Shown here piece after piece: positions 1,421 through 60,264 of a stretch of DNA of 64,000 nt. Made by a program: the position numbers and the translations under genes. The notes beneath the pieces were generated by a model. The model saw only the letters and a list, made by a program, of their open reading frames with translations. It searched no databases and had not been told where the DNA came from. This DNA comes from Stegostoma tigrinum. Lineage: Eukaryota. Location of the stretch: NCBI RefSeq assembly GCF_030684315.1, contig NC_081397.1:11370421-11434420 (forward strand), written 5' to 3'. The number at the start of each line of letters is the position of its first letter. Position 1 is the first letter of the stretch.

Positions 1421-2260
1421 ATATCGATAACTACACTCTTGTCTTCACGTATCAGAAAACGACAGGGACAATGACAATTATGCACACATTCAGAATGCAA
1501 AATAACTGACAGGTACAGATTGATAAATATATGCACACATTATAAAAATGTAGAGATTGTGATCTATATTTGCACATTCACAGAAATTTGACATTTTTGC
1601 ACTCCCACATTCATGACGCAGGAATGGATGGGTATTGATTGACAACTAAACTCACATATGACACAGCAGAAACTGAGAGGGACAGTTTGATAATTACAAT
1701 CACATCTTCACGAGCAGCTACTGACAAATACAGATCAATAACTACACCCAGTTCTTCACAAAACCAAAGTTAACAGGTACAGATTAATAACTAAATTCCT
1801 GTCTTGATGATACAGAAACTGCTAGGTACAGGTTTATAAAAATGCTCACACATTCCCCAAGCAGAAACTGACAGGAATATATTGAAAACAAAACCTCAGT
1901 TTCTGCTCCATGAATGTATCAGGGATAGACTGACAATTACACAAACACATTTGAATATTCTGATTTCAGATACTGACAGGGACAGATTTACAACTTCATT
2001 CATTGACACACACACACCCCTGAAACTGACGGGCAAAGTATGATAAATGTATTCACACCTCTACAACTTTCTGAAGAAGGGCCCAGGCCCGAAACATCAG
2101 CTTTCCTGTTCCTCTGATGCTGCTCAGCATGCTGTGTTCATCCAGCTCTGTGCCTTGTTATGACAGATTCATAACTACACTGTCAGATACACACGGGAGA
2201 AACTGAAAGTTACAGAGTGGTAAATATGCTCATGCTGGCATGCAGCAAAAACTGACACAA
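1421..2260 (+). repeat. Degenerate ~48-bp satellite array, interrupted by a short hammerhead-core element at ~2071-2161
   Basis: Repeated ACTGACAGG.ACAGATTGATAA.TA.ACTC motifs. Confidence 0.75.
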
Positions 2261-2268
2261 AAAAAAAC

Positions 2269-4038
2269 AGCTCCTGTAAACCGTCATCAGATGGGTTTGA
2301 AAACATTTAACTGATCAATTCAACATCTAGCTAATAAGCATTCAGATATTTAGATTATCACCAGGAATTCTAACAGAACTGTGGGTCTGATTGCACTCTT
2401 GCCCTGAGCTGCACTACATTTGATCAATTTTAAAAACTTCAACTCTAATTGAGTGATGCACAGAAAGTAACCAACACCCGTACAGCTCCACGACTGGAAC
2501 TACCTAATGCAAGCTTGTCTGTGCATATGTGTTTAGTTACTGATCCATTCATGTCAGTTGCTACCTGTTGAATGTGTGAGTGTAGTTATCAATGTGTCCC
2601 TCTAAATCTTTGGCAAATTACTTCTGTATTACACAGCAGAGACTGACAGGGAAACATTGGTCTAGACCAATCAATCATTGTAAAAATGGTACAGAACAGA
2701 AGGAGGTCATTTGGTGCATCATGTCCATGCTGACCCAAACACCCCCAGATGGGCATCACAATCACATCTTCCTGCACACATCCCATAGCCCTGCAGGTTT
2801 CATTCTATTATCCTTCAGAACTTGGTCCATATGTGACAGACCATCAAAAGAGGAGAGCCAGATTATTTTGTGAAGAATTTGGAAACTAAAATTTAACACT
2901 GAGGACCATTGGGTGAGTACCCAGGTTTTAGATAATGAGATTTTTTTTTTGAAAAGAACCGTTGTTATGGAACAAGATGGACAGCCACACTCCATTGATC
3001 CTTCAATCTTCCTGCATTCGAAAACTGAGCATTTTAAATGTTTCATGTAAAGTGGAGAGCCAGTTACCATTTAAATTATTATTTTTTTAAATAAATGTCC
3101 ATGATTATAAAATCTTCTAGCGTACAACAGAACAAAAAAAATCTAGTTACACAAGATGAAGAATTTGAGAACAATCCTGCGATAAAGGTGGAGATGGTAG
3201 TTCCCCTGCCACCGTGATACATTTATGGAAATTGAATGCTGGCTGAATGGATGTAATTATTGGCTTGTTGTTTCTCAGCAGTGCTGGCTTGGAGAGACAG
3301 GACTGTTTGCTGTGCTGTAGTTGTCTATGACTAGATATGTGTGAGTGATAATCATTTTGTATAGTTCATGTATCTGTTGCTGGAGTTTAAATGGAACTCC
3401 ATAGCTGTTAGTCCTTGGATCACATCTTTAGTTATGATGTCTGTATTTTGAACTAATTCTGAGTCAGTCAGTACCTGTACCTGTCAGTCCATCCACGTGG
3501 AAACAAAGCAGAGTAATATTACAGGTCCCGTTACACTTCCTCAGAACAGAGGTTCAACTTCAGAACGTTCATTTCCATACTCATATGCTGATAGACTTGC
3601 TGAGATTTTGCAGCAATTTCTACTTTTGTTGCTGATTTCCAGCATCTGCAGTTCCTTGGTTTTTCTCATTTGTTAGGCATGTGTGTTTGAAGTTGTCATG
3701 ATTTGATAAATGTATGCACACATTATAAAAATGTAGATATTGAGATGAATGAAATGACATGAATGGATCAGTAACTAAACTCATATGCACAGACAAGCTT
3801 GCATTAGGTAGTTCCAGTCATGGAGCTGTACGGGGGTTGGTAACTTTCTGTGCATCACTCAGAGTTGAATTTTTCAAAATTGATCAAATGTAGTGCAGCT
3901 CAGGGCAAGAATGCAATCAGGCCCACAGTTCTGTTAGAATTCCTGGTGATAATTTAAATATCTGAATGTTTATTAGTGAAATGTTGAATTGATCAGTTTA
4001 ATGTTTTCAAACCCATCTGATGATGGTTTACAGGAGCT
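2269..4038. repeat. ~285-bp inverted repeat (arms 2269-2556 and 3755-4038)
   Basis: agctcctgtaaaccgtcatcagatggg...ccattcatgtca is the near reverse complement of tgacatgaatggatc...cccatctgatgatggtttacaggagct, with few mismatches. Confidence 0.9.
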
Positions 4039-5234: not shown

Positions 5235-5935
5235 GCTGCTGTTGACTTGCTCACTGAGCTTGTAAGTTTGTTCACAGACATTTCATCACCATACTACATA
5301 ACATCATCAGTGCACCGTGAATGAAACGTTGGTATTCTGTCCTTCTTGCTATTTATGTGCCTCACTTTGCTGGGGTGGTGAGCAACACTTCCAGATTGAT
5401 TTCTTAGTGGTTGGTGTGTGGTGTCCAGCTGGACATGTTTGTTAATGGAGTTCTAGTTTGAATTCTCGTGCATGTCTTTGGTTGGGATGTCCTCTGATGG
5501 CTACGTTGTCCCAGTCAAACAGGTGTCCCTCTTTATCCATGTGCATTAAGGTGAGTGATAGTTGGCCATGACTTTTGGCAGCGAGTTGATGTCCATGAAT
5601 CCTGATGGCGGGTTTTCTCCCGGTTTGCCTTGGGTAAGGTTTGTGGCAGTATTTGCATGGTATCTTGTAAATCGCATTGTTTCTGCTAATTGTGAATATT
5701 GGATCCTTCATTCTCAACAGCAGCTGTCAGTTCGTGGGCTATCATGATTCTTACGGGGTAGTGTAACCTGGTGGTTATTTCACACCCTCAGTGCATAGTC
5801 TGGTGACTACTATCACTGGATGTGTTGTGTCTTCCTGTTGTCATCAGTTGTGTGGCATCTGCGAACAATGCATTTTGGGTAACTGTCATTTCTAAAGACA
5901 CTATCAGTGTTCTTCCTTGGCTTTATGAAACTCCG
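5235..5935 (-). mobile_element. Penelope-like retroelement fragment (GIY-YIG endonuclease plus 3' end with hammerhead-like core)
   Basis: ORF 5442-5717 NAIYKIPCKYCHKPYPRQTGRKPAIRIHGH matches the Penelope VYKIPC..C..YIGQTGR motif. Minus-strand CTGATGA-stem-GAAA-TG-TC at ~5310-5277. Confidence 0.85.
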
Positions 5936-7015: not shown

Positions 7016-7935
7016 ATAAGACATAGGAGCAGAAATCAGGCTATTTGGGACATGAAGTCTGCTCCACCATTAAATCATGGCTGAGACGATCCTTAAGCCA
7101 ATTCTCCTGCCTTCATCCCATAACCTTGATCCCCTTGATAATCAAAAACCTATCTATCTCACCCTTAAATGTACACAATAACGCGGCCTCCACAGCCTTC
7201 TGTGGCAGTGAATTCCATATATTCACCACTCTCCGGCTGAAGAAGTTTCTCCTTATCTCTGTTCTAAAATGTCTTCCCTTTACTTAAAGGCTGTGCCCTT
7301 GGGTCCTAGTCTCTCCTACCAATGGAAGGATCTTCCCAACATCCACTCTGTCCAGGCATTCAGTAGTCTAAGTTTTGATTATCGTCCTTCTAAACTCCAA
7401 AGAGTACAGTTCCAGAATCCTCAAACATTGCTTATATGTTCAGCTTTTCATTCCTGGGACCATTCTCGTGAACCTCCTCTGAACCTGCTCCAGGGGCAGT
7501 ACATCCTTCCTGAGATATGGGGCCCAAAACTGCACATGCTACTTCAAATGTGGCCTGACTCAAGTCTTCTAAAGCCTCATAAGCACATCCTTTTTTTTTA
7601 AACATCTTCAAGACCATAAGTCATAGGAGTGGAAGTAAGGCAATTCGGCCCATCAAGCCCATTCCACCATTTAAATCAAGGCTGGGCATTTCAACTCCAC
7701 TTCCCTGCACTCTCCCTGTAGCCCTTGATTCCTTTTGAGATCAAGAATTTGTCAATCTCTGCCTTGAAGTCCTGGCAAAATAAATGCCAGTATTGCAGTT
7801 GCCTTCCTGACTACTGACTCAAACTGTGAGTTTACCGTGAGAGATTCCTGGAGTTGAACTCCCAAGTCTCTTTGCACGCAAGACTTCTGAATTTTCTGCC
7901 CATTTAGAAAAGAGTCTATGCTTTTATTCTGGAGG
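7016..7935 (-). mobile_element. Nested CR1 3' fragments
   Basis: Reverse-oriented CR1 3' ends (catag..gagcagaa..ggc.attcggccc) and VQRDLGV-type residues in ORF 7752-7964. Confidence 0.75.
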
Positions 7936-7999
7936 GAGGATGGTAACTTCTTCAGGTCAGGCATCCCTGGAAGACGCTTTGCAGTGAAGTTAAAATTGT

Positions 8000-8302
8000 A
8001 TCAGAGATAATGGTGACTGCAGATGCTGGAGAATCCAGACAAACCTCAGGGGATCTCTACCCCACTGCAACTCTAGATTCCCCTCCACCTACCTCCTCCT
8101 CTATCCATCTTTGATCCACCTCCTAGTCTGTCCCTATTTATTTCAGAGCCCTCTTCCCCCTCCCACTTTTCTGATGAAGGGTCCAGGCCCAAAATGTCAG
8201 CTTTTGTGCTCCTGAGATGCTGTTTGGCCTGCTGTGTTCATAAGCTCCACATTTTTTTTAAAATCTCGGATGCTGCAGCATCTGCAGTTATCATTATCTC
8301 TC
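8000..8302 (+). mobile_element. Short Penelope-associated element with decayed hammerhead core
   Basis: ctgatgaagggtccaggcccaaaatgtcagcttttgtgctcctgagatgc at 8171 onward. Confidence 0.65.
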
Positions 8303-9110
8303 ATGCTTTTATTCTCCTTAGCCAAGTGCATGACCTGACACTTTCCCACATTGTACTCCCTCGACTACTTCTTTGCCCACTCTCCTAACCTGTCCAATTC
8401 ATACTGCAGCCTCAGCGCCTCAATACTACCTGTCACTCTACCTATTGTTGTATCATCTGCAAACGTAGTCAGAATGCAAACAGTTCCTTCATCCAGATCA
8501 TTAATGTATAAAGCATGCCTTTTATCCCCACTCTCTGCTTTCTGCCAGGCAGCCAATCTTCTATCCATGCTAGCACCATGGGCCCTTATGTTACTCAACA
8601 GCCTCCTGTGCGGCAGCTTGCCAAGGGGCTTTTCGAAGCCCAGGTAGATAACATTCATTGGCTCTCCTTGGTCTACCCTGCTTGTTACTTCCTTAAAGGA
8701 TTTAAGCAGATTTGCCAGGCATGACTTCCCCTTGATGAAACCGTGCCTGGAGTGTTGGAGGCTGTGTTTATAAAATTTAGTGGTGTGGAAAGGGTGCATA
8801 ATCAAGATCTTTTCCCCAGGATAGAAGAATGCAAAATGAGAGGGGATGGGTTTAAGTGACTGGGAAAGTCTTAAAATGAACCAAAGGTGTGCAATATTTG
8901 CACACAGAGTGGTGTGTGAATGGGTTGAATGCCAAAAGAAGTGTTGGAGACTCTTACAACTACAACGTTTTAAAGGCATCTGGATGAGTATATGAATTGG
9001 AAGTGTTTCGTGGGATATGGACCAAATGCTAGTAAATGGAACTAGATTAATCTCCGATATCTGCTCTCCATGGACGAGGTGGACCCTGTACATCTCTCGG
9101 ACTGTATGAC
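8303..9110. mobile_element. CR1 fragments (minus ~8303-8750, plus ~8760-9110)
   Basis: ORF 8365-9093 HGFIKGKSCLANL..FADDTTIG. Plus-strand 3' CR1 remnant follows. Confidence 0.75.
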
Positions 9111-9516: not shown

Positions 9517-9629
9517 CCAATCACAGAAAGGCTAATCACATGGTCTGACATTCTTGTAAACTACCCAATCAGGAACAAGACATTTCCCCCATCCTTCATT
9601 AGCATTGCTGACGCGGTCAGGCTATAAAA
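9517..9629 (+). promoter_or_regulatory. H2B promoter: two CCAAT boxes, octamer variant, CRE half-site, TATA
   Basis: CCAAT 9517 and 9565, ATTAGCAT 9598-9605 (canonical H2B octamer ATTTGCAT), TGACG ~9609, TATAAAA 9623-9629. Confidence 0.8.
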
Positions 9630-9680
9630 TGCGAGCTCCGAGCCTGCTTCCGTTTATTGTATCTGAAAGCGATCGTCACG

Positions 9681-10061
9681 ATGCCGGATGAGAAGAAAGC
9701 GCAGGCAACTTCCAAGAAGGGCGCCAAGAAAATCATCAAGAAGGCGCCGGGGAAAGGCGGCAAGACAAAGAAACGATCCAGGAAAGAAAGTTACGCCATC
9801 TACATCTATAAAGTGATGAAGCAGGTTCACCCCGACACCGGCATCTCCTCCAAGGCGATGAGCATCATGAACTCGTTCGTCAAGGATATTTTCGAGCGTA
9901 TCGCGGGGGAGGCTTCCCGCCTGGCCCATTACAACAAGCGCAGGACCATCAGCTCCCGGGAGATCCAGACCGCGGTGCGGCTGCTGCTGCCCGGGGAGCT
10001 GGCCAAGCACGCCGTGTCGGAGGGTACAAAGGCGGTGACCAAGTACACCAGCTCCAAGTGA
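9681..10061 (+). CDS. H2B: Histone H2B (replication-dependent)
   Basis: ATG at 9681. MPDEKKAQ...[27 protein letters not shown]...[13 protein letters not shown], intronless. Confidence 0.99.
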
Positions 10062-10102
10062 GACCCCACATTGTGCTGAGAAAAACACATCCAAAACCCA
10101 AC

Positions 10103-10118
10103 GGCTCTTTTCAGAGCC
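10103..10118 (+). terminator. Histone 3' stem-loop (H2B)
   Basis: GGCTCTTTTCAGAGCC followed by ACCCA and a purine-rich downstream element. Confidence 0.97.
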
Positions 10119-11818
10119 ACCCACAATTTCAATGAAGCAGTTGAACCATTTTTCGTTTGTAAATGATTCTCGGTATCTATAATTAATGTCTCTAATCTTA
10201 TCTTTGTTTACACAAACGTTCTAAACATTACCGTGCGGTCCCTGTCCCTCTGTCGGTTACTTTCGGTTGCCTTCCTACCCAGTCTCTCCTCCCTCCCTGT
10301 ACAGAAAGCACATTCATCGTCACTGTCATTTTTTTTAACAACTCCTATGTGTTCCAGTTATTATTTACCCCTTGATCAGGAATTTCACCCCCTGGAAAGA
10401 AAACTAACTGCTCGAGTCCCACGAACAGATGTTGGGGGATACTTGTCATTGAGGATTTTAGCTGTCGGTGAGAGGCTTTCAAAATGAGCTGAGCTAAAGC
10501 CAGAGCCAGGATTGCAGTCGCAAGTGTGAAACTGTGTTCAAGGACAATATGGGAGGGCAACTTCAAACTATTGTTTCAAGTTTTAACCCGTTCACCCCGA
10601 AAAACGTTGTGTAAGTTTTTATAAATACATCAGCGTGCACTTGTAATGTGAAATTGAATTAAATTCAAAGAAAAATTAAACTGTTTATTCCTCTTTGTGA
10701 AACTTTCCCCCCTCTATCCTACATGTTGGAGGGTTTTTCAAATTTGTCCCAATGGGGGTATGAACGCTGGATTTCACCCGTGGCAATGAAAAATTATGAT
10801 CTCTTATTTGAGTCCCATTAAGAGAAATTCCGCGCGATTCCTTTTTCAATTTCCAAATCTGTCAGGGAATTTATCCGATTTTTTTTTCAGTTTGCAGTGT
10901 GTGGGGCTTTCTGCTGTCGGTGAGAGGCTTTCAAAATGAACCGAGACCGTCCGGAAAGACTGATCCAGCACAATAAGTGAGGGCTATTTTACAATGTTTT
11001 CTGAAAACGGTGTTGCTTCGGGAGTGACAGAGAGAGATTATGTGAAGTGAACATTTTTAACTGAAAGGAAATTAAATCGTAAGCATTAACGCAAAAATCC
11101 TTGTAAAACCTCTTCCTCGTATTGCCCATATTGGCGGGCTTTTCAAATCGGACAGAAAACGTTTGATGATTTGGCGCCGGTATTTTCCTACGGTTTCCAC
11201 GCAGAGGAATTTTGTTTTATTTTCAAATCTCCCCGCGGGTTCTATCCGGTTTTGCAGAAAGCTGTAAATGAGGCTTTCTGCTGTCGGCGGGAAAATTTCC
11301 AAGTGAACCGAGAGGAAAGCAGAACAGCTGCCGGACTGGCATCGCAAAAGTGGAAATATTGTTGATCTTGTGCAATAGGGAGAGCGATTGTAAAATATTG
11401 TTTAAAGCAGTATTGAGTTCAACGAGAAAGAAACAGTTGTGTGATACTTTGATTATTATATCCGGGTGTAGATGTGAATTAAATTCAATCTGTGCAGAGA
11501 ATAACTTTCGGCGGGCTTTTCATTCCCCCTTCCGCTTAATGTTAAGTTTTTTCGCGGGGTGGGGGTAATTCAAGATCAAAAATAGTTGGTTTCAACTAGG
11601 CCGGGAAATCAGAGAGAGATGGTGTGACGTATATAGGTGTATTCTAAAAGTAAATTATCTGAAGTAAGAACGCATTCTTCTTTGTAAAACTTCTACCCAT
11701 TTCGAAATTATTGGCGGGCTTTTCGAGTTTGAAAGAAAGCGGTTGATGATTTGGCGCCGGGATTTTCCGGCCTCCTCCCCGGGCCCTATCCGGATTGGTG
11801 AGGGAAGCAGATATCTGA

Positions 11819-12355
<537 letters not shown>

Positions 12356-12383
12356 AGACACTTATTGAATCTGACAACCCAAA

Positions 12384-12399
12384 GGCTCTTTTCAGAGCC
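12384..12399 (+). terminator. Histone 3' stem-loop (H2A)
   Basis: GGCTCTTTTCAGAGCC-ACCCA, downstream GAAAAGCAGCT element. Confidence 0.97.
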
Positions 12400-13098
12400 A
12401 CCCACAACATCAGTGAAAAGCAGCTAGACTTTCACTGCTGGCTAACTAATTTTCATTTTATGTGCAAACCCGGTCCTCTAAACGCGCAAAAAAATCCCTT
12501 TTGCTTTCGCTTTAACAGTGATAAAACTAGAACGGGACGAATAAAGTTGGAGGGTTTGCTGCAGGGACAGCGACTGCGACTTTAAATAGTGACTCAAAGC
12601 GGTATCCCCATCCAGGGAACATGAGACATGGAATAGCTCGGCCCCAGAAAGATGCCATGCGAGACAGAACCGACCATCCTCAGAGGATCGAATACACTTG
12701 TGGGAGATTGGGCAAAATTTCGATTGCATGGCCAAAACTACAAAAATCATTTGTGTAATGTGGCGGGTTTTGAAATTGGCGATTGTTCCCACCCTCCTTC
12801 TCCGGCAAGTTCAGTTACAGCTGGGGAAACGCCACGGGAAGCAATTCCCACACAGGCGGTTCAATTGGAAATGTATAAACTATAAAGGGTGGAATGCAGT
12901 ACTTGAATTTGTTGTGATTACTGAAAATTTATAAACCTGATCGTCCCGAGTTGCCTCGTCTTCAATATCAGTTCGTGCATCCCAGACCCATTCATTTTCT
13001 GTAACTCTTGTTGCATTGAGACATCAATAGCATGCTGTGTGTTGACATTAACTAAAGTCCAGTGCCTGACGATTGCTGCTCTCTCGGGACAGTTTAGT

Positions 13099-13114
13099 GG
13101 CTCTGAAAAGAGCC
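13099..13114 (-). terminator. Histone 3' stem-loop (H3)
   Basis: Reverse complement GGCTCTTTTCAGAGCC, followed by ACTAA and GAGAGAGCAG. Confidence 0.95.
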
Positions 13115-13158
13115 GTTGTGTTTCTCGGGGTGAATGTACATGGCCGGGCACGCTCCGT

Positions 13159-13572
<414 letters not shown>

Positions 13573-13624
13573 CTACAACACACACAAGGTACTACTCTCA
13601 ATGCTGATCCTGCTGCGGCGCTGC

Positions 13625-13790
13625 CTATTTAAGGGAATGGAGAGCACGCCCTAGAGCTGCGATTGGATACAGTCCCGTCCCTCAAATCCCCGCGAAACAG
13701 CCACTGAAGGACAGAAAAGGCAGTAAAATAATTATTGGAGGCTGATTGGTTAACTTGAAATGACAGTTGGTCAATTTCAAATCGCCCGCC
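13625..13790 (-). promoter_or_regulatory. H3 promoter: TATA-like, CCAAT boxes, CDE/CHR-like element
   Basis: TTAAATA ~13626-13632, ATTGG at ~13662, 13733 and 13745, GGCGG-N4-TTTGAA at 13790-13776. Confidence 0.7.
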
Positions 13791-14471
13791 GATTTCAGCC
13801 TGACCTTACAAAATATTAAAAAGTCCCATGCGCCTGCGCCTAAGATTATATCTTATGCTTTACAAAATTTTCTTGTGAACCTAACTTGCAGTCAGCGCGG
13901 AGAGGGCTCTGAATCATTTCCTGACGCATCTCTAACAGGCAGGTGGAATGAACACGCCACTAAAACCTCGGCACGGCTACCAGAATCAAAACTGAACAAA
14001 TTATCATTCCTGGGAGCGTCAATGAAGTACAAACACTGTAATATGTATCATTAGCGCCTGGGCCCAAAATTACGGACAGAGCAAATTATTATTCATGGTC
14101 TGGACAGCTGGTGTTATTACTGATAGACTGGTATTCATATGGAAGAGAATCAAAGATTTAGGGTTGAGAAACAGATCAGCCATGGTCGCATGACGGAGCC
14201 GGACGCTCCTTCTGTATCTGACATAACCAGCTGCAGAACCGTATCGTCTCGACTGGCCGTGAAACCTCTATCTGTAGTGTAGGGATATCTTGATTATAAA
14301 ACACGTTACTGCAGACAGTATAATTTAACAATCGCGCTCTCTCTCTTGCAACGCGGGACACGAAGTTAATATATTTCCTGAAGGATTGATGCAAAATTAA
14401 ATGTCGCTGCACCAGCCCTATGTGCTGGTTCCCCATCCTCAGGTCTCCGCTCTCAATCGGAGTGTTTGGGT

Positions 14472-14487
14472 GGCTCTGAAAAGAGCC
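14472..14487 (-). terminator. Histone 3' stem-loop (H4)
   Basis: Reverse complement GGCTCTTTTCAGAGCC-ACCCA. Confidence 0.97.
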
Positions 14488-14517
14488 TTTGGGTTCGCTG
14501 GAAAAGGGACGATTTGC

Positions 14518-14838
<321 letters not shown>

Positions 14839-15120: not shown

Positions 15121-15563
15121 GCAAGATGACAAAGTGTGAAGCTGGATGAACACAGCAGGCCAAGCAGCATCTCAGGAGCACAAAAGCTGATATCACTGAT
15201 ACAATTTTAAAAGCAGTTGTGAAACAATTAAAAGCCCATGTCCTGGCCTTTCTTTCAGAAGACAGCATGTCAGCTTCCATTTCACAGATAGCAGGAACTG
15301 CAGATGCTGTAGAATCCGACAAAGTCAGTTTCCATTGCTCCCGGTGAATCAGACAAAATCATTTCTTGGGGACTGTGTTGTGAAGCGGGGTTTCTGCGCC
15401 AGTGTTACTGTCTCCCTGAATATGTGAAATAGAAATGGACAGGAACTGAAACTGACATTTCCACAGCCATCATAACAAAGTGTGGGGCTGGATGAACACA
15501 GCAGGCCAAGCAGCATCTTAGGAGCTCAAAAGCTGACATTTTGGGCCGAGACCCTTCATCCAG
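15121..15563 (-). mobile_element. Two partial copies of the short hammerhead-core element
   Basis: gctggatgaacacagcaggccaagcagcatct.aggagc.caaaagctga at ~15141 and ~15487. Confidence 0.7.
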
Positions 15564-16899: not shown

Positions 16900-17450
16900 A
16901 AACACCCAGTTGTGAAACAAAGCATAGACTGGGTAATCATTTTGCACAACATCTATGTTCTGCTTGCAAAAAAGACCTTGAACTTCCTGTTGCCTGCCAC
17001 TTTAATGCACCACCCCGTTTCCAGGCCAACATCTCTGTCTCTGTCTTGCTGTAGAGTTCCATTGAAGCTCAACACAAGCTAGAAGAACAATACCTCATCT
17101 TCCAATTGGGGACTCTGCAGCCCTCCAGACCCAGTATCGAGATCAATATTTTTTGGGCCTAACCTCTACCCCTCACAAGGCCTTGTTACCACATACCCTG
17201 CCATTATCCACCACCCACTAAGAGTTCCCAAAAACTACTATTCAACCTCCCAGTCTGATCGTTATCAACTCTGTCCAAATGTTCTTCTCTCTGTTAGGCT
17301 TTATCCTAACATTTATTCCAAACCCCATCACACTCTCCTTTTATCTGCATATAAACTGACGTTTTCCCAACCACCATCAAATCTGCGGAAAGGTCACTGG
17401 ACCCAGAATGTTAATTTTGTTCCTTTTTCCTTCGAAGATGCTGCCACACA
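16900..17450 (+). mobile_element. Penelope-like GIY-YIG C-terminal fragment and 3' end
   Basis: ETKHRLGNHFAQHL..LPVACHFN then KLEEQYLIFQLGTLQP. Decayed ctg.ggaaaggtcactggaccc.gaatgttaa core at ~17383-17414. Confidence 0.8.
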
Positions 17451-20369: not shown

Positions 20370-22030
20370 AACAGTAGAAACTGACAGATACGGATTGATA
20401 CCTACACTGACTCATTCACATTCCAGAAACACACAAAAGAAAATTGATGATGAAACACATATTCACATTCAAATAACAGAAACTGACAGGCATGGACTGA
20501 TAATTTGACTTGGCCATTCACACAGCAAAAACTGACTGGAGAGATGGGGAAATGCAGCCTAACATTTATGTTGCAGATACTGACAGCAAGAATAATGTTG
20601 TTAGACACAAATTCACAGAATAAAAACTGACTGTTACACATTGATAAATGCATTTGCCTATTCAAAGCCAGAAACTCATAGGTGGAAATTGATGGGTAAA
20701 ATCACACATTCCCAAAGCAGAATGATTGTTTATAACAGTCTTGGTTTCAAATAACTGATGGGGGACAGATTGGTAACTTCACTCACCGATGCACAGAGCA
20801 GAAACTGACAGGCATAGAGCAATAACTACACTCATCTGCTGCCGTAGGTACTGATTGACAATGACATTTACATATTCACACAGAAGAAACTGACAGGTAT
20901 TCACTGATAACTAAACTCATATATTGACATAACAGAAACTGCAAGTGATAGACTGAGAATTACACAAACATATTCACCAAGCAGAGGCTGAAAGTGTACA
21001 GATTGATAACTACACAACTGTATTCACACAGCAGTCCGAGAGGGATAGACTGAATGTTAAACTCACATGGACAGAACAGAAACTGACAGGCAGAAATCAG
21101 CAGTGAAACTCTCATTCTTTTAGCTGAAACTGACAGGTAGAGATTAATAACTAAATCCTCACATTCACAAACCAGAAACTGATAGGGGCAGAATAATAAT
21201 GACATTGACATATGCACATAACAGAAAGTGATATGGACAGAATAAAAATATCACTCCCAGGCTCATTTGACATCATCTGAACAGTACGTTTGAACCACTA
21301 AATTCATTTTCACAGAAAAGTGTTTGCCAATTAAATATTGATAACTTTATTCCCAGATTGACAGAGCAGAAACTGATAGGCATAGATTGATCACTGAACT
21401 CATATTCAAAGAGCAGAACCTGACAGGTACAGATCCATAACAGCACTCACATATTAACATATCAATTGCTATCTGTTAGTTCCAGCTAACATCATTCACA
21501 TATTGACAAAGAAGTAACTGACAGATAAAAATAGACAACTATATTTATATATTCCCAGACCTGAAACTGGCAGGGACAGAGTGGTAAATACACTCATGCA
21601 TTCACATATCAGACTGACAGGGACAAATTTAAAACACTATTTCACAGAGCACAAGTACAAGAATAGATTGATCACAGCAGTCATGCATTCACATAGCAGG
21701 ACCTAACAGGTAAGGATTGATAATTATACTCATGTTTTGAAGTAGCAGATGCTTACAGCTAGAGATTAATTACTGCACTCTCATATGCACAGTACACAAA
21801 CTGACAGATAACTGATAACTGCACTCAAAATTTCACATGGCAGAAACTAATATAAACAGATTGATAAATAAGCTCATATTTATATCGCAGAAATAGGCAG
21901 TGACTAACTACTTCTGTGTGAATATGTAAACATATTTATCAGTCAGTCTCTGTCAGTTTCTACAATGTGGATATATCAGTTTAGTTATCAGTCTATAGTT
22001 GTCAGTTTCTGTGATGTGAATGTGTGAGGT
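20370..22030 (+). repeat. Longest degenerate ~48-bp satellite array (roughly 30 units, last ~130 bp inverted)
   Basis: GAAACTGA-like cores at ~20886, 20935, 21079, 21126, 21175, 21369 and 21416 (multiples of ~47-49 nt). tcagtttct orientation at 21910-22030. Confidence 0.85.
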
Positions 22031-34194: not shown

Positions 34195-37147
34195 GAGAAG
34201 GAGTGGATTAGGCAAAATGGGAGGATATTTAATTGGGGAATAGGAAACTATGACGTGATTAGACATGAGTTAGGAAGCATGGACTGGGAGCAATTGTTCC
34301 ATGGTAAGGGAACTATAGACATGTGGAGACTGTTTGAGGAACAGTTGTTGCGAGTGATGAGTAAATATGTCCCTCTGAGACAGGCAAGAAGGGGTAGGAT
34401 AAAGGAACCTTAGATGATGAGAGCGGTGGAGCTTCTTGTGAAAAGGAAGAAGGTAGCTTACATAAGGTGGAGGAAGCTAGGGTCAAGTTCAGCTAGAGAG
34501 GATTACATGCAGGCAAGGAAGGAGCTCAAAAATGGTCTGAGGAGAGCCAGGAGGGGGCACGAGAAAGGCTTGGCAGAAGGAATCAGGGAAAACACAAAGG
34601 CATTTTGCACTTATGTGAGGAATAAGAGAATGGTCAAAGAAAGAGTAGGGCCAATCAGGGATAGCATAGGGAACTTGTGTGTGGAGTCTGAGGAGGTAGG
34701 GGAAGCCCTAAATGAGTTTTTTGCTTCTGTCTTTATGAAAGAAATGAACTTTGTAGTGAATGAAACCTTTGAAGAGCAGGTGTGCATGCTGGAATGGATA
34801 GAGATAGACGAAGCTGATGTGCTGAAAATTTTGTCAAACATTAAGATTGACAAGTCACCAGGCCCAGACCAGATTTGTCCTCGGCTGCTTTGGGAAGCGA
34901 GAAATGCAATTGCTTCGCCACTTGCGAAGATCTTTGCATCCTCGCTCTCCACTGGAGTCGTACCTGAGTACTGGAGAGAGGCAAATGTAATTCCTCTCTT
35001 CAAGAAAGGAAATCGGGAAACCCCCGGCAATTACAGACCAGTAAGTCTCACGTCCGTCGTCTGCAAGGTGTTAGAAAGGATTCTGAGGGATAGGATTTAT
35101 GACCATCTGGAAGAGCATAGCTTGATCAAATACAGTCAACACGGCTTTGTGAGGGGTAGGTCATGCCTCACAAACCTTATTGAGTTTTTTGAGGATGTGA
35201 CTAGAAAAGTTGATGAGGGTCGAGCTGTGGATGTGGTGTATATGGACTGCAGTAAGGCATTTGATAAGGTTCCCCATGGTAGGCTCATTCAGAAGGTCAG
35301 GTGGAATGGGATACAGCGGAACTTAGCTGCATGGATACAGAATTGGCTGGCCAACAGAAGACAGCGAGTGGCAGTAGAAGGAAAATATTCTGCCTGGAAG
35401 TCAGTGGTGAGTGGGGTTCCACAGGGCTCTGTCCTTGGGCCTCTACTGTTTGTAATTTTTATTAATGACTTGGATGAGGGGATTGAAGGATGGGTCAGCA
35501 AGTTTGCAGATGACACAAAGGTTGGAGGTGTCGTTGACAGTACAGAGGGCTGCTGTAGGCTGTAACGGGACATTGACAGGATGCAGAGATGGGCTGAGAG
35601 GTGGCAGATGGAGTTCAACCTGGATAAATGCGAGGTGATGCATTTTGGAAGGTCGAATTTGAAAGCTGAGTACAGGATTAAGGATAGGATTCTTGGCAGT
35701 TTGGAGGAACAGAGGGATCTTGGTGTGCAGATACATAGATCCCTTAAAATGGCCACCCAAGTGGACAGGGTTGTTAAGAAAGCATATGGTGTTTTGGCTT
35801 TCATTAACAGGGGGATTGAATTTAAGAGTCGTGAGATCTTGTTGCAGCTCTATAAAACTTTGGTTAGACCGCACTTGGAATACTGCGTCCAGTTCTGGTC
35901 GCCCTATTATAGGAAAGATGTGGATGCTTTGGAGAGGGTTCAGAGGAGGTTTACCAGGATGCTGCCTGGACTGGAGGGCTAATCTTATGAAGAGAGGTTG
36001 ACTGAGCTCGGACTCTTTTCATTGGAGAAAGGAGGAGGAGAGGGGACCTAATTGAGGTATACAAGATAATGAGAGGCATAGATAGAGTTGATAGAACATA
36101 GAACATAGAACAGTACAGCACAGAACAGGCCCTTCAGCCCACAATGTTGTGCCGACCATTGATCCTCATGTATGCACCCTCAAATTTCTGTGACCATATG
36201 CATGTCCAGCAGTCTCTTAAATGACCCCAATGACCTTGCTTCCACAACTGCTGCTGGCAACGCATTCCATGCTCTCACAACTCTCTGTGTAAAGAACCCG
36301 CCTCTGACATCCCCTCTATACTTTCCACCAACCAGCTTAAAACTATGACCCCTCGTGCTAGCCATTTCTGCCCTGGGAAATAGTCTCTGGCTATCGACTC
36401 TATCTATGCCTCTCATTATCTTGTATACCTCAATTAGGTCCCCTCTCCTCCTCCTTTTCTCCAATGAAAAGAGACCGAGCTCAGTCAACCTCTCTTCATA
36501 AGATAAGCCCTCCAGTCCAGGCAGCATCCTGGTAAACCTCCTCTGAACCCTCTCCAAAGCATCCACATCTTTCCTATAATAGGGCGCCCAGAACTGGACG
36601 CAGTATTCCAAGTGCGGACTAACCAAAGTTTTATAGAGCTGCAACAAGATCTCACGACTCTTAAACTCAATCCCCCTGTTAATGAAAGCCAAAACACCAT
36701 ATGCTTTCTTAACAACCCTGTCCACTTGGGTGGCCATTTTAAGGGATCTATGTATCTGCACACCAAGATCCCTCTGTTCCTCCACGCTGCCAAGAATCCT
36801 ATCCTTAATCCTGTACTCAGCTTTCAAATTCAACCTTCCAAAATGCATCACCTCGCATTTATCCAGGTTGAACTCCATCTGCCACCTCTCAGCCCATCTC
36901 TGCATCCTGTCAATGTCCCGCTGCAGCCTACAACAGCCCTCTACACTGTCAACGACACCTCCGACCTTTGTGTCGTCTGCAAACTTGCTGACCCATCCTT
37001 CAATTCCCTCGTCCAAGTTGATAGCCAGAGACTATTTCCCAGGGCAGAAATGGCTAGCACGAGGGGTCATAGTTTTAAGCTGGTTGGAGGAAAGTATAGA
37101 GGGGATGTCAGAGGCGGGTTCTTTACACAGAGAGTTGTGAGAGCATG
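34195..37147 (+). mobile_element. Young CR1 ORF2 segment (host), with premature stops and no 3' tail
   Basis: ORFs 34123-34413, 34414-35565 and 35581-35982 (RT domain). Resumes at 37025-37147 after the nested insertion. Confidence 0.95.
36095..37015 (-). mobile_element. Young CR1 copy inserted antisense into a CR1 of the same family
   Basis: Intact 278-aa ORF 36180-37016, tail at ~36091-36112, TSD AGTTGATAG at 36086-36094 and 37016-37024. Confidence 0.96.
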
Positions 37148-39140: not shown

Positions 39141-40085
39141 GAAGCAGGACATTGCAGGGCTGACAGGGCCGTTTCAGGTCTGTTGTCTGTTCTGGTGCCT
39201 AGGTCAATGCTGGGTGATCCATAGCGATGAATACGACTGAATGGCTTGCTCTTTCATTTCAAAGGGTCAACCCTGATTACAGGTCACTGGACTTGAAACA
39301 TTAACTTTGATTCTCTCTCTCCACAGATGCTGCCAGACCTGCTGAGTTTCACCAGAACTTTGTGTTTATAACCTGTAAAATTAAGTTTGTTCCTCTTTCT
39401 CTCCCTCTCCATAATCCGGCTAAGATTTTGAAATTTGCCATTCTTGCTGTCTTCTCCTGATTGATGCAAGATGAAGAGCTTCAAACAGAATCTGTTCATT
39501 TTCCAGGTGCAGTCCTGCCAAGTAAATCTCGTCAAAGATTTCCAACTTCCCAAAGTGGTCTGCATCTACTTAATGACCTAATCTTCTGGTGGCGGGGTGG
39601 GGTGAGAGGTTGGCATTGGGGGTGGGTTTTATGGGGGTGAGCTGTCAACTTCAGAGAGATACATGATCGCGATAACGGTTTGTACAAAGTACAGCTTTCT
39701 GTCGATATTTACTGTTTAAAAAGCAATTGATGCATCAATTACAGATCATGGTCAATTCACCACAGTCTTACCAGATCATTAGAGCTGCTCTCCCATTGGA
39801 GAGAGCGGATTGGATGGTGATGGAACCTGAGGGTCACTGCGCCTCAGGTGATGGAGAGGTTCAAAAGGAGAGTCCTTCACGGTAACCCCATCCGGTGTAT
39901 GAATTGAACCCACGCTGTTACCAATCTAATGCATCACAAAGCAGCCATCGAGGAAAGCACCCCCGCCCCCCCACCACGTCCACTTCTGAGACAGGAATAG
40001 TCGCTGATCTGGAGAGTGGTTGTAATTACAAAACAAATAGCCTTGCCCCTCTCCCCACCCCAACATCATTGGAGATAAAGAGCTT

Positions 40086-41163: not shown

Positions 41164-42520
41164 TTGAGCCTGTTCCACCTTTCAGTCTGTGCCTTCATAC
41201 CATTAACTTGCCTTTAGCCCCATCCCCTTATTATCTCAGCCAAACAAAAATCTGTCAGATTGGAAACTAACCACTGATCCAGCCACTGCTGTGTTTGTGG
41301 AAAAGAGATTTCAACCTCGATAACGCTTTGTGTGTAATCATTTAACGGAACGTTTTCAGTCTAACTGTTGCCACGTACCATAGCCATCCAAATACGAAGC
41401 AGTTCTGACTTTTTTTTTTAAACAGAGTTTGCCTTACACCTGTGAATGCTCTGTTTCAACTATAAACTCTGGAAAATGCCCCACCCCAACTCCCCCGATC
41501 ATGTGTCATTGCTTATGGAGAGAAATCTACTGGTTGAATTCCTGTAGCCACAGGTTTTGGGGCAGGATTTTTGTTTGTCAAAGAGGTACATAATGCTTTT
41601 TGCCCCAAGTTTGTACGTTTGCTTCCGAAGTACCTTGGCCAGTGGCAGGGGGCAGGGACTAACGTCCAACTGGAAAGCTGAGCCCAGAATGTCAGGATGG
41701 AGCTGGGTAATACTTTGCGACAGAGAATAGAGGAGAAAGTGGGAGAAAGAAACAGAGTGGTGATAAGGGAGAGTCTTGCGAATGAAGTTTCATTGAATTG
41801 AGATGCCTGGTCAATTTGCTGATTTCGAAAGCTTGTGGCATCTCACAATAAAGTAATAGTCACACAGTACAGAAACAGGCCCTTTGGCATAACTTGTCCA
41901 TGCCAACTGGGCTTTCCATCATAAACTAGTCTCATTGGCCTGCAAATCCCTTTTGCACCCTGTCCAATTTAATAATATCCTTCCTTTTCCTAAGGTACCA
42001 GAATTATACACACGAATCTAAAAGTGGCCAGACCAATGTCCTGTACAATAGCAACATGATGTCCCAAATCCTATTATCAATGGCCTGACCGATGGATGCA
42101 AAAATGAAATCTGGATAGTGGCATGTGATCAGGAATGTAACTTTAATACAAGAGTATCACAGTACTGGAGAGTCTTTTTGATCCATCCAGACTGTACCCA
42201 CTAACAACAAAGGATGTTCCCAGTCACAATGGGGCAGTCCACAACCAGCGGGGGACAGTCTAAAGGGGAAGGGTAGGACTGAGGTGAGGGAAAATGTCTT
42301 CACCCAGAAAGTGGGAAGCATGTGGGATTCTCTGCCACAGCAGTGATTGTGCCCAAAACATTGAATGTGACTCCATCTCTCAATCCTGTCATCATCTCTC
42401 TCTCTCTCTATCTCTTCCCCCACCAGCCCCCATTTCTCTCTCTCTCTATCTATCTCTCTATCTTTCTCAATCCTGTCATTATCCTTTTCTCTCCCTTCAT
42501 CCTGCACTCATCTGACTTTC

Positions 42521-42650
42521 AGAGATAATGGGAACTGCAGATGCTGGAGAATTCCAAGATGATAAAATGTGAGGCTGGATGAACACAGCAGGCGAAGCAG
42601 CATCTCAGGAGCACAAAAGCTGACGTTTCGGGCCTAGACCCTTCATCAGA
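42521..42650 (-). mobile_element. Intact ~130-bp Penelope-associated element with minimal hammerhead core
   Basis: Minus strand CTGATGA-A-GGGTCTAGGCCC-GAAACGTC, flanked by direct repeat ATCTGACTTTC (42510-42520 and 42650-42660). Confidence 0.8.
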
Positions 42651-43129
42651 TCTGACTTTCTCTCCCTCACCCGACCCTCGCTTCCAGAAATGTTAATTGC
42701 AGGCTCGAGCACGCGAATCAGTTTGAATTATTTTAGCCCCTCCTAACAGCCTCAGTCGTATGTGAATAATCTGGGAGATATATGCACACAATGTTTCATT
42801 TATATGTACATATGTAACACCCACTGACAGAAAGTAAACATGGAAAACACCTTCACATGCATCGCACGGGTCCAAATGTAAAGTCAACCTCTTTCTGTCT
42901 GGGAGAGGAAACACTTTGGGAATTCAATTAATTTCACCTCTGACATTCCTGAAAAAGAAAATAAATAGGAGCAGAGAATGACGCCCCTCGGTCCATCTAC
43001 CAGTGGTGTAATTTGTAATCTGTAACCATCCATCTCCCTGAGAGTGTTACAAACTAGTTTCTCCCCACCTCCCCCTTTCCCCACAATTTTCGCCCTTTAA
43101 CTGCAGCAAGTAAAACGAACACATCAAAC

Positions 43130-44980: not shown

Positions 44981-44984
44981 TTGA

Positions 44985-45162
44985 AGGCTGACGTTTCGGG
45001 CCTCGACCCGATGTTTCGTCTAAACCCTTCTTCTGAAGAAGGATCTCGGCCGGGAACGTCAGCTTTCCTGCTCTTCTGATGCTGCTGGGCCTGCTGTGTT
45101 TATCCGGCTCTGTACCTTGTTATCTCAGATTCTCCAGCATTTGCAGTTCTACTATCACTGAA
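44985..45162 (+). mobile_element. Hammerhead-core element with inverted 5' piece
   Basis: ctgacgtttcgggcctcgaccc (inverted) precedes ctgaagaaggatctcggccgggaacgtcagctttcc. Confidence 0.65.
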
Positions 45163-46084
45163 ACAATTTTACCCTGGATTGTAAGAAATAGTTTTCATCT
45201 GAAATCCTCAAGCAGTTGAGAATCTCTGTCCCTTTGTGAAGTACAGCTGGTTTTGAGGGCGTTCCTAACATACCAATACATCAGACAGAGTTACAGCGTG
45301 CCATGGTGTGGTTGGAGATCCCCAGTGGGCAGATTTTATGCCATTCCCACTCAGTGGGCGATATGTACTCCCTGAGGAACAAGCAGTGATAGCTCTATCC
45401 CTCTGTAAAATCAGCAATTACCACAAATCTGCCTTATTTATTTCCTATTTCTGTCCCACCCTGTAATCAATTCTCCTTTTCTGTTTACATTTAAAACAAA
45501 TGCATTCCCCTTTGAATCGACTTTTTTTTTAAAAATGCTAATCTGTTTATGACTCTCTTGCAGTTTATTGCACGTGGCTGTTACTTTAGCCCTCTGTTTG
45601 CTGTATTCGGGCAGTTTAATTGTTGACTGCATGGCAGATCGGTCCTTTTTACAGCAGAACTCCCAGGTTTCCCCTTATTTCCTGTGGCTATCGGCCTGAA
45701 GAGGGCTAATATCAGAAATGTTGACTGCTCCTTTCCTCCACATGCTGCCTGGCTTGTCCTTCCAGCCTCCCGTTTGTCTGTCTCGGCTGTATCTTCAGCT
45801 AAAGGGGAGGGCATGGCTCAGTGAATGTCTGCTGTGTGTGTGTCACAGAGAGCGAGAGAGAGGGCGTGTTTCATTGAAAGGAAGAGTTTGGAGGTTTAAA
45901 GGGGGATGTGAGGTAAAAGGTTTTCACCCAGAGAGTGCTGGGGAATCTGGTACTCACTGCCTGTGAGGGTGGGAGAGGCAGAAACCCTCATCACATTGAA
46001 GAAGGATTCAGATGTGCACTTGTGATTCAAAGGCTTTGGGCCAACTGCTGGGAAAATGGGATTAGGGAATAGGGATAGATAGGA

Positions 46085-46201
46085 GGAACTGCAGATGCTG
46101 GAGAATCTGAGATAACAAAGTGTCGAGCTGGATGAACACAGCAGCCAACCAGCATCAGACAAGCAGGAAGACTGATGTTTCAGGCCTAGACCCTTCTTCA
46201 G
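46085..46201 (-). mobile_element. Hammerhead-core short element
   Basis: Minus strand ctgaagaagggtctaggcctgaaacatcag. Confidence 0.7.
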
Positions 46202-53050: not shown

Positions 53051-54509
53051 CTGAAAATAAAACAGACCAAGTTGAGAAGGAACTCTTTGGAGACATTGAC
53101 GATTCAATTTGGACGAATTGAAGGCTGATCAACATTAAAGATGTAACTGAATATTTCAAAAGCATAAGCTGTGTTTTTATATTGGTGCAACGCTTAATAA
53201 ATTGTCCTCCTCAATCAGCCCAGAAACTTCAGAAGATCGCATTTAGAAACCTCGCTCTGGCTAAAGCCTACAATTTGCATTCAGGTCAATCACACAGAGG
53301 GTCAGTTTTTTAGGATGCAGGTCATTGCAACATCTTCAGCAGGCCGCCTTAATCTTATCAGCCTTTGCATCACTCACCCTGTTGTTGTACATGAAAACGA
53401 CAAGAGTGAACCATACAGATAACGTCCATTTGGGTTTTAGCTGTTGCATGCTGATAGTTTCAGATAGCTCAGTTGGCTAGATGGCTGGTTTTTGTAATAC
53501 ATGGCATGCCAGCCCTTGCCAACAGCATGGGTACAATTCCCACACCAGCTGAGGCTACCCTGAAGGATGCTCCTTTTGAACCTCTCCCCTCTCCTGAGGC
53601 GTGGTAACTCTCAGACAAGTTAAAACACCACCCAGTTCCCCTTCACTCTCTCTCTCTCCTATGAAAGAGCAGGCTGGTGGCCATGTAGAACATGACCATT
53701 TACTACTCATTCCCTTCAGACAAAGGCTAGAATGTGTTTGGATTCCATTGTACACAAGGCCAACTTCAGTTCAAATGTCCCTTGTGGGTGTTGATCGGTA
53801 TCCGTGTGATAATTGCAAGTTCATCTTTCTGAGCAACAATATGACATGCGGTGCTTTTATTTTCTCTGTCATCTCAAATCAGCAGGTGGTAGCATTTTGC
53901 ATATCCGCCTTGCGTATTATATGAGGAAAATGGAACTTACTTTCTCTCTATCCACAGATGCTGCCAGACCTGCTGAGCTCCTCCAGAAATATCTGAATTT
54001 ATTTCTGATGTCCAGCATCTACAGTTCTTAGTTTTAAGAGAAAATGATCTACGTCTGCCTCAGTTAAGTGTAAAATGCATGTCCCACTGCTTGCGTCACG
54101 CACAGAATGTTTCTACATGTACAAAACAGTAATTGGGAAGCGACCGCCATCATATCACAGTCACCAACACACACAGCGATATATTTTTATTTCATTCATT
54201 CACAAGGTGTCACTGGCCAGGCCAGCATTTATTGCCCAACCCGAACTGTCTCCATTGCTGTGGGTCTGGAGTCACATGTCGGCCTGACCAGGTAAGGATT
54301 GCAGCTTCCTTCCCTAAAAAGCATTGGTAAATTTATTGGGCTTTTCCCCAACAATTTCATGGTCATTAAACTCTGAATTCCAGATATTTATTGAATTCAA
54401 ATTCTGTGGGAGGATTCGAACCCAGGTCCCCAGGACATTAGCTGGGGTCTTTGGATTAACAGTGAAGTGATAATATAACTAGACCATACCCCTTCTGATT
54501 GGAATAACC

Positions 54510-54697
54510 AGATGTGGTGCTGGATGAGCACAGCAGGCCAGGCAGGGTCAGAGGAGCAGGAAAGCGGACATTTCAGGTCTGGACTCTTCTTCATTTTCTG
54601 AAACATCGGCTTTACTGCTCCTCTGATGCTGCCTGGCCTGCTGTGTTCATCCAGCTCCACACCTTGTTACCTCAGACTCCAGCATTGGCAGTCCCTG
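54510..54697. mobile_element. Head-to-head inverted dimer of the hammerhead-core element
   Basis: ctggatgagcacagcaggccaggcag mirrored by ctgcctggcctgctgtgttcatccag. Confidence 0.75.
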
Positions 54698-57354: not shown

Positions 57355-57770
57355 CAGGGATCGGGTGAGGGTTTGGGTTAGTGTCTGAGTGAGGGCCAAG
57401 GCCAGAGTTCGGGTCAGCATGAGGTTAAGGATTGTTTTATGGTGAGGGTTAGCATTCAGTTTAAGGTTAGTGTTAGGATTTGGATTAGGATTAGGGTCAT
57501 GGTTAGGTTTTTGGGTATGGTTTGGGTCAGGGTTAGGGTTAAGGTTGTTTCAGCATTATGGTTCAGTTCAGGATTAGCATTGGGTTAAGGCGAGGGTTAC
57601 GGTGAGGGTCAGCATTCAGTCTAGGGCTAGGCTAAAGGTTTGGGTTGGTGTATTAGTTTTAGTTAGCATTTGGCTGAGAGCCAAAATTAGAATGAGTATT
57701 AGAGCTCAGTTTCGGACTAAGATTTAGTTCAGAGGTAGGTTTGAGTTTAAATTAGGGTTAGGATTAGTGG
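57355..57770 (+). repeat. Degenerate (TTAGGG)n-like hexamer tract
   Basis: ggttagggtt, ttagga, tcaggg and tgaggg variants with 6-nt period. Confidence 0.8.
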
Positions 57771-58183: not shown

Positions 58184-59007
58184 CTGAAATCCAACAACAA
58201 CATCCGGCTCACGTTAACAAACTCAGCGGGAAGTGTTACCGCATCAGCCCTGTGTGAGGCACACGGTCAGCATCAGAGTGACCAACCCCTGCAGGTACGT
58301 AACTCCCTGCCACCCACGGGGGATGGAAAACACGGAAGAATTGAGCCCATTGAGCTCCCTGCACCGAACCCACTTTCTCGCACAAGCCCCTGAGAGCCCA
58401 GAAGGTTTTGACACATTGAGTTCTCATCTAGGCACTTGTCAAAGGTTATCAGGTTTCCAGCCTCAACACCCCTCCCAGGCAGTGCAGTCCGGAACACCCA
58501 CCATCCTCTGGGCGAAACAATCCTCAAACACCCTCTATTCCTCCTGCATTCTACTTTCAAATGATGCTCCCCTTATTGCTCACCCTTCCACCCAGGGGAG
58601 CCGCTGCTCTCTGACCCCCCTCCCCCATAGCCGTCCCTGTGCCACACAGACTGACACACCTCTATCAGTTCCCCCTCAGCATTCCCTGCTCCAAAGAAAA
58701 CAGCCTGAGCTTACTGAGCCTCTCTTCATCGCTGAAATGCACCAGCCCAGGGCAACGTCCTGGTGAATCTCCTCTGCACGCCCTTCTCCATAAGACTTAC
58801 ACTTCCAGATTTTTATTGCGCTCAAATTCTACCATTGAGTATGGAGGGATTTGAACTGGGATCCCGGCAAAATGACCCAGGCAGCTGGATTAATAACCTC
58901 ACGTCACCTTCCTAACTGAGATGGTTAATTTTGACTGGCACGGACTGGATGGAGCGAATGGCCTTTCCCTGTGCTCTGTCTGTGTCTGATCTGACTGTCA
59001 CTGTTAC

Positions 59008-59310
59008 CTCGCAGCGTGAATTCGATATAGTCGCTGGTCACGTTAAAAATGGTGCCGTCGGTTCCTGTGTTGATCGCTGCACAGTGATACCTCCCGACAC
59101 TGTCTCTCCGGAATGAATGAATAACCAGCTCACCACCATCGGCAGTCACATGGGAGCTCGCACTGCCGTTCCTTAGCGGCACGTTGTCTCGGTACCAAAT
59201 GAACTGGGGCTCAGTGCCTTCCCTCACCAGGCACCGGAGAACAAGGCGGTCCCCGGGCTGTATCTCAGTCCCGTTGGTGCGGGATATCAGCACAGCATCC
59301 GTGACAGGAA
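59008..59310 (-). CDS. Ig C2-type domain exon of an Fc-receptor-like/PECAM-like receptor
   Basis: gttttctcctcag| and |gtaaca, 303 nt, phase 1-1. VPVTDAVL..GDRLVLRC..EGT..FIWYRDN..L.I..DSVGRYHC. Confidence 0.92.
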
Positions 59311-60067
59311 CTGAGGAGAAAACACGCCGAGTTCAAAACCATGGAGTTCGCCCATCGATTGAGGCTATCAGTGGGGACCAGTTTAATGCAAATAATTTAA
59401 AAGGGATTTAAGCAGTACGATGGATTCAAAATCTAATGGAGAGCTTTAATACTCCCCAATGATCAACATTTTGGAGATTATCATTGAGGGAAAAAAATCT
59501 ACCTGTCGCACCACCCCACCAGCACACCCCCCAAAATGTTCAAAGGAGTTACCATCGGCGTATCCCCACACACTATCCTTGGGAGATGCTAAAATTGAGA
59601 GACTTCATTGAGTCATACAGCGTGGAGTGGGCCCTTCGGCCCATTGAGCCTACACACACAATAACTGCCCCCTAAAGGCATACTAAATCCAACTTCCTCC
59701 CCTGGTCCCATATTCTTAAATGTTATGATATGAGAAGTGCTTCTCCAAATATATTTTAAAGACGTTTCGGTTTATGCTCGCCACTATATTCCCAGTCAGT
59801 GCATTCCTGATTCACCCAGAGCTGAGTGAAAAAGCTTTATTTTTTTGTCAAATCCTCTCTGAATCCCCTGCCTGTTACACTAAATCTGTGCCCTCTCATT
59901 TTAATTTTAGCATCTCCCAAGGATGTGCAATCTCATGATTGACCCATCAACCAGGGGGAACAGATGCTTTCCATTCACCCTGTCCATCCCTCTCACAATT
60001 TTATACACCTCATTCATGACCCTCCTCTGGCTTCCCTGCTGAAAAAAATCAATCCAGGCCTATCTGG

Positions 60068-60264
60068 AGATAGTGGGAACTGCCAATGCTGGAGAATCGA
60101 AGATAACAAGGTGTAGAGCTGGATGAACACAGCAGGCCAAGCAGCATCAGAGGAGCAGGAAGGCTGACATTTCGGGTCTGGGCCCTTCTTCAGAAATGTC
60201 AGCTTTCCTGCTGCTCTGCTGCTGCTTGGCCTGCTGTGTTCATCCAGCTCTACACCTTGCTATC
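60068..60264. mobile_element. Head-to-head inverted dimer of the hammerhead-core element, inside a minus-strand CR1
   Basis: Arms ~60102-60173 and 60193-60264 are near-perfect reverse complements. Confidence 0.85.

Follow-up and report, generated by a model that had tools for sequence, protein, structure and literature searches.

The question raised by a short insertion in Stegostoma tigrinum DNA is whether its hammerhead ribozyme core defines a mobile family in its own right or marks the end of a larger retrotransposon, and whether that core does anything where it now lies. The insertion occupies positions 42521–42649, minus strand, of the 64,000-nucleotide stretch analyzed here (the window), and a first-pass annotation had assigned it to a non-autonomous, Penelope-mobilised, retrozyme-like family. 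We favor a different reading, to which we give a probability of about 0.83: the element is a 5′-truncated, dead-on-arrival copy from an endonuclease-positive Penelope-like retrotransposon (PLE), of which it represents the end module (pLTR with minimal hammerhead, and tail).

Structure and age of the focal insertion

The element measures 129 bp, as delimited by a step in contig depth and by the joints of empty-site contigs, and consists of a hammerhead core (42622–42649, minus strand), a pLTR body, and an optional 32-nt tail (42521–42552, minus strand; element positions +98 to +129), the border of which is set by alignments of separate tail pieces and by inversion joints at 42552/42553. The length of ~130 bp first ascribed to the element thus holds for this copy but is not fixed, since the ends of its relatives vary and one copy is far longer. 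Perfect 11-bp direct repeats bound the insertion as annotated, at its 3′ end (42510–42520) and at its 5′ end (42650–42660), where the repeat supplies a host-derived 5′ strand of helix I. A repeat as good occurred with the same geometry at 9 of 2,000 random positions, and we treat the pair as a target-site duplication. As had been supposed, this copy has no coding capacity.

Four sets of public contigs were placed on 42462–43100, comprising 63,336 (run X1), 1,901, 14,135, and 845 contigs. Summed depth in run X1, which is not a copy number, reaches 10^6–10^7 over the element against 79–510 on its flanks, and the family is clearly very abundant in the genome. In a contig of a second organism (run X9), 42515 is followed directly by 42656; the 140 bases missing from it amount to the element plus one repeat, and a diverged empty-site form is present among the run X1 contigs as well. 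Because the site is empty in one organism and a diverged empty form exists in the other, we consider the focal insertion young. The flanks occur in several diverged versions across the two organisms; the empty and filled forms may therefore be paralogues rather than alleles, and the surrounding region is probably a duplicated segment.

Read on the minus strand from 42649, the core is CTGATGA-A-GGGT-CTAG-GCCC-GAAA-CG-TC, exactly as annotated, and the predicted GUC cut falls between 42622 and 42621. Minimal hammerheads in the pLTRs of metazoan PLEs were described by Cervera and De la Pena (2014, PMC4209133), so the motif class has been in print since 2014. The four traits given there are all present in the focal copy, which bears out its classification as a minimal type I core: all 12 core bases are canonical (CUGANGA, GAAA, and NUH), a single unpaired base follows A9 and precedes 10.1, a G10.1–C11.1 pair is present, and positions 15.2–16.2 form a palindrome (ACGU) with no loop 3. 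The published motifs also resemble ours in occurring mostly as single scattered copies with some opposite-strand pairs. The helices are shorter here. Helix II has 4 bp (42641–42638 with 42633–42630; pair probability 0.79–0.93), compared with 7–8 bp in Schistosoma, and helix I has 2 bp when paired with native upstream sequence, taken from the copy at 8171 and from a consensus of loose contig ends, compared with 4–5 bp in most minimal hammerheads and 2 bp in the D. virilis variant (PMC4209133). In D. virilis an intron ends at helix I; an equivalent arrangement has no support here, since neither the copy at 8171 nor the loose-end consensus shows an AG shortly before the core.

The focal core is intact, which raises the question of whether the ribozyme is active, or domesticated, and acts on a transcript of the host. 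It is the sole one of the eight hammerhead-bearing copies in which both the 12 core bases and the palindrome are undamaged (the core of the 54.6-kb copy, one base out of register in the alignment, was read by eye), and its host flank can pair at three of the first four positions of helix I. Folding argues otherwise. Helix I forms with a probability of at most 0.03, bearing out an earlier caveat about weak stem I pairing; helix III is absent without a partner; and the best monomer fold is an inactive rod of −14.5 kcal/mol, in which CUGAUG pairs with CGUCAG, whereas the whole active dimer reaches −2.3 kcal/mol. These energies leave out tertiary contacts and help from proteins. Single minimal hammerheads of the published set did not cleave (PMC4209133). 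The intactness of the core, moreover, is explained by the youth of the insertion that the empty sites indicate. We therefore consider a role on a host transcript very improbable: the focal copy is probably an inert, short end piece of a PLE, and its hammerhead most likely does nothing at this locus.

Related copies and their ends

All seven relatives named in the first-pass annotation were recovered, at 77–90% identity. Beyond these, the window contains a unit at 15190, two separate tail pieces, and, at 45009, a piece in inverted orientation. The copies fall into at least two subfamilies and make up 10 insertion units. Three of them lack the tail: 2071–2162 (plus strand), at whose ends we found no duplication; 15124–15203 (minus), which starts 2 nt before the cut site, is preceded by a short inverted piece, and has a perfect 12-bp duplication; and 15471–15560 (minus), which starts at G5 and has a perfect 13-bp duplication. 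A solo tail at 15280–15318 (minus) is bounded by an imperfect duplication of 13–15 bp, and a copy with tail at 46075–46201 (minus) has none that we could find. Three units are paired. At 44983–45171 (plus), two copies are joined head to head at the hammerhead start, with an internal jump in the inverted arm. The fold-back pairs at 54502–54697 and 60066–60264 carry the 32-nt tail on one arm only; the former has a weak 14-bp duplication, and the latter, which interrupts a CR1-like repeat and shows TTTC/GAAA microhomology at its turn, a 12-bp duplication with two mismatches. Matches to miRNA families at 54.5 and 60.1 kb, far below gathering scores, correspond to these fold-backs and were discarded.

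A further unit is a composite insertion at 7931–8302 (plus), set in a CR1-like LINE between perfect 13-bp duplications (7918–7930 and 8303–8315). Its first part (7931–8036, minus) is an inverted tail with ~70 nt of downstream parent sequence; its second part (plus) comprises 134 nt of pyrimidine-rich upstream sequence, followed by the hammerhead at 8171, body, and tail. Loose ends in the public contigs likewise run on past the tail and upstream into a pyrimidine-rich tract. Since both extend beyond the unit in either direction, the 129-bp element is a slice of a longer parent.

Across the 10 units, duplications of 11–15 bp bound seven, four of them perfectly, and none was recognizable in the other three. 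In five units the 5′ junction carries a piece in inverted orientation, and opposite-strand joints also appear in contigs of runs X1, X5, and X9. The 3′ ends, read from the alignment, form two classes ~35 nt apart, at +88 to +95 (five units) and at +118 to +129 (six units); the alignments of two tail pieces both begin at exactly +98.

Decay in the family bears on the hammerhead itself. The palindromic ACGT has been lost through CpG decay in six of the seven other hammerhead-bearing copies, in keeping with the annotation's statement that copies differ mostly at CpG positions; as a general description this was overstated, as 7 of 20 differences fall at the four CpG positions in the first 30 nt of the five copies compared.

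Several other features share the window. CR1-like LINE fragments are found in it, and a young CR1-like LINE at 35468–37018 contains a 563-nt inverted duplication whose arms are 97% complementary. A replication-dependent histone cluster at 9612–14838 encodes H2B, H2A, H3, and H4 and has four 3′ stem-loops, the fourth of which, behind H3, scores slightly below the Rfam gathering threshold. An immunoglobulin-domain exon lies at 58925–59332 (minus; Pfam Ig_3, E = 1.6e-11), a degenerate interstitial TTAGGG array of ~14 copies at 57461–57546, and a 49-bp minisatellite with related imperfect inverted repeats at 20870–21245 and 21746–22028.

Sister families and the link to Penelope-like elements

A sister family, family B, ties this structure to coding PLEs. 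One of its copies, a decayed hammerhead with the start of a pLTR body (17383–17450, plus), lies 220 nt behind a remnant of a PLE GIY-YIG endonuclease, the broken C-terminal half of the protein (16908–17162, plus). That remnant, which has one in-frame stop and no Pfam match, has 98 relatives at E ≤ 0.001; the 10 that were looked up include six whale shark proteins and one stingray protein. Together with the CR1-like LINE fragments and the histone cluster, this gives the window the look of cartilaginous-fish DNA. One relative, P0027, contains a CxxxxCxxC linker and matches RVT_1 and GIY-YIG weakly, below the Pfam cut-offs, and from the clade description in PMC8557442 we take it to be Neptune-like. 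Focal copy and family B align colinearly: the score was reached by 0 of 300 shuffles for three of the four copies and by 1 of 300 for the fourth, the copy behind the GIY-YIG remnant. The 134-nt upstream piece of the composite insertion aligned with the family B UTR no better than chance allows (88 of 300 shuffles).

A second endonuclease-like remnant, at 5700–5430 (minus; tblastn E = 3e-5), is followed by a hammerhead of its own at 5310. From its motif, this remnant is presumably Poseidon-like. In the hammerhead behind it (remnant and hammerhead together spanning 5700–5280), helix I measures 4 bp and helix II is long and decayed at CpG sites. In three PLE families of the window the core sits at the same relative place. 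Older sister families that have pLTR body and tail in common with the focal family are seen at 3545–3660, 39273–39360, 53950–54030, and 45696–45790.

These comparisons speak to the suspicion that the hammerhead likeness is a coincidence. The bare pattern CTGANGA..GAAA occurs in the window 10 times against an expectation of 7.5, which is no enrichment, so that significance comes from family homology and not from motif count. Rfam gave no hammerhead match at E ≤ 5 across the window or at E ≤ 10 for 42500–42720. Pair covariation among 11 short, mostly decayed sequences did not exceed that of shuffles. In that alignment, 88.6% of the helix II cells and 47.7% of the helix I cells are paired. Against coincidence stand the shared position of the core in three families and a fish-like metagenome record, L001, which has 24 of 29 nt in common with the focal copy over the core, none downstream, and a longer helix I of its own. 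Because L001 has retained the core and lacks the body downstream of it, the core is conserved across lineages; between families it is the part that is kept. Chance is largely refuted by this conservation, and we regard its probability as negligible. An excess of core conservation is not to be expected among the dead copies of one family, which decay neutrally, and is an unfit test for them.

The hammerhead of L001 (3798–3825, minus) is a solo PLE hammerhead in fish-like DNA, its core nearly identical to the focal one, and the exons of this record resemble, we assume, a MOV10-type helicase. Scans with exact patterns yielded 0 matches in viral contigs, 0 in prokaryote genomes, and 0, then 1, in metagenomes; an endonuclease alignment run against viral contigs found no locus.

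Within the window, we found no reverse transcriptase or endonuclease ORF physically linked to the focal family, and two word-indexed protein searches, including one aimed at linking the copy at 8171 to an upstream ORF, returned no matches. This speaks against a PLE origin: the link to a coding element rests on homology to family B and on structure. For it speak the duplications in 7 of 10 units, the empty-site contigs, the two-way extension of 7931–8302, the colinearity with family B, the two endonuclease remnants each followed by a hammerhead, the four traits of the core, and the fold energies of dimer and monomer, together with close parallels in published insertions. Endonuclease-positive PLE insertions (Craig et al., 2021, PMC8557442) are 5′ truncated, have an inverted truncated copy next to the 5′ end, and may bear a 30–40-bp tail, often at one end only, which matches the 32-nt tail on single arms and the separate tail pieces seen here. 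In the anole, reverse transcription starts at two sites (Frangieh et al., 2024, PMC11167929) that would explain two classes of 3′ ends ~90–130 nt behind the hammerhead. The PLE reading is less comfortable with three features: the three units without a recognizable duplication, a helix I shorter than the 4–5 bp of most minimal hammerheads, and 5′ ends that pile up at the first base of the hammerhead, where published PLE insertions are scattered. Such tight clustering is unlike random truncation and would also fit a short template RNA with a fixed start.

A self-standing, non-autonomous family, SINE-like or consisting of retrozyme-derived monomers that borrow PLE proteins, would supply that template: short, ORF-less master loci would produce an RNA of ~130 nt starting at the hammerhead. 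The sharp 5′ clustering fits this, as do the 870 loose ends counted at 42650 among run X1 contigs (agreement beyond 42650 is low, 0.38), the presence of at least two subfamilies, the 63,336 contigs placed from run X1, and some contig joints that read head to tail. Animal non-LTR retrozymes (Cervera and De la Pena, 2020, PMC7229834; Li et al., 2026, bioRxiv 10.64898/2026.07.22.740005) are likewise non-coding, have a type I hammerhead, PLE ancestry, and duplications longer than 4 bp, and the preprint derives them from pLTRs and reports them in its one cartilaginous fish; the families from that fish might include the focal one. Animal retrozymes, however, are defined by tandem arrangement and by type I hammerheads of the canonical form. 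Among 14 tandem rows in the window, none is an array of 150–450-bp hammerhead units, and tandem-type junctions in public contigs are only occasional. The ribozyme is minimal, without Rfam match and without the 6-bp helix I and loop contacts of the canonical type; the ends are variable and of two classes at the 3′ side; copies continue into parent sequence on both sides; and no internal mark of a promoter of their own is apparent. We consider a self-standing family distinctly unlikely. Of the original proposal of a Penelope-mobilised, retrozyme-like family, the Penelope link is supported, while a separate family built around its ribozyme is not supported: the motif is that of PLEs, and tails, inversions, and variable extension are those of truncated PLE insertions.

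Insertion 5′ ends and the predicted cut

For the preferred reading, an end module of a PLE, we propose the following course. A tandem parent locus would be transcribed across its pLTR, as inferred from Drosophila Penelope, and the element's protein would nick target DNA with a stagger of 11–15 nt, the duplications recording the stagger and the enzyme being deduced. Reverse transcription would start inside the RNA at either of two sites, which lie ~90 and ~129 nt past the hammerhead; the classes of 3′ ends are observed, and internal priming is suggested by the anole element. The enzyme would halt preferentially at the 5′ edge of the hammerhead, probably because the RNA ends there, a cause proposed for the observed clustering. 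Frequent template jumps, which the joined copies display, would yield inverted or tandem units. The hammerhead would be a processing signal of the parent that depends on a second copy as partner and, probably, on help from the element's protein. Work by Lunse et al. reportedly demonstrated dimer cleavage.

The 5′ starts, read by eye with the aid of alignments, lie within −4 to +2 of C3 in 9 of the 12 sense units; the others lie at −134, in the GAAA box, and 2 nt before the cut. If truncation were uniform over 264 nt, such clustering would have a probability of ~1e-12 for a given bin, the bin having been picked post hoc. An RNA 5′ end at this position is the simplest reading of so tight a cluster. 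Transcription of Drosophila Penelope does start inside its own pLTR (PMC2377424); by our reading, that start lies ~120 nt before its hammerhead (PMC2377424, PMC4209133), and the match is inexact.

A second position recurs in the public contigs. Of the 81 contig junctions that contain intervening letters, 12 are listed, and 4 of these 12 start exactly at 42621, the first base past the predicted cut, although two of the four may represent one locus. They join to both classes of 3′ ends; their direction is not recorded. Position 42621 is absent among the 15 plain joints and 24 loose-end rows listed, and no unit in the window starts exactly there. The foot of the rod hairpin lies at 42620, and a pause at that foot predicts nearly the same position as the cut. 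The junctions may record cleavage in vivo or a pause of the reverse transcriptase. Tentatively, and with the odds against it, we suggest that the genome holds a fossil record of two germ-line RNA 5′ ends: a main one at the first base of the hammerhead, which would be the transcription start, with a second, minor one lying exactly at the GUC cut.

What PLE hammerheads do is still described as unclear (PMC8557442), and anole reads showed no RNA ends at the cut (PMC11167929). We found no mention of sharks in the available text of PMC4209133, and our literature search, whose coverage took in few subscription papers, turned up no publication dealing with this shark family or with the ends of insertions at the cut. 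The focal motif alone adds little to what is known of PLE hammerheads; its usefulness lies in scale, because the family is abundant enough that genome-wide counts of insertion boundaries could test whether cut RNA serves as template and where the template starts. If the record of two ends is real, its minor end would testify to in vivo cleavage by a minimal PLE hammerhead whose helix I is only 2 bp long, and the cut RNAs would be templates from which the enzyme jumps, building tandem or inverted units.
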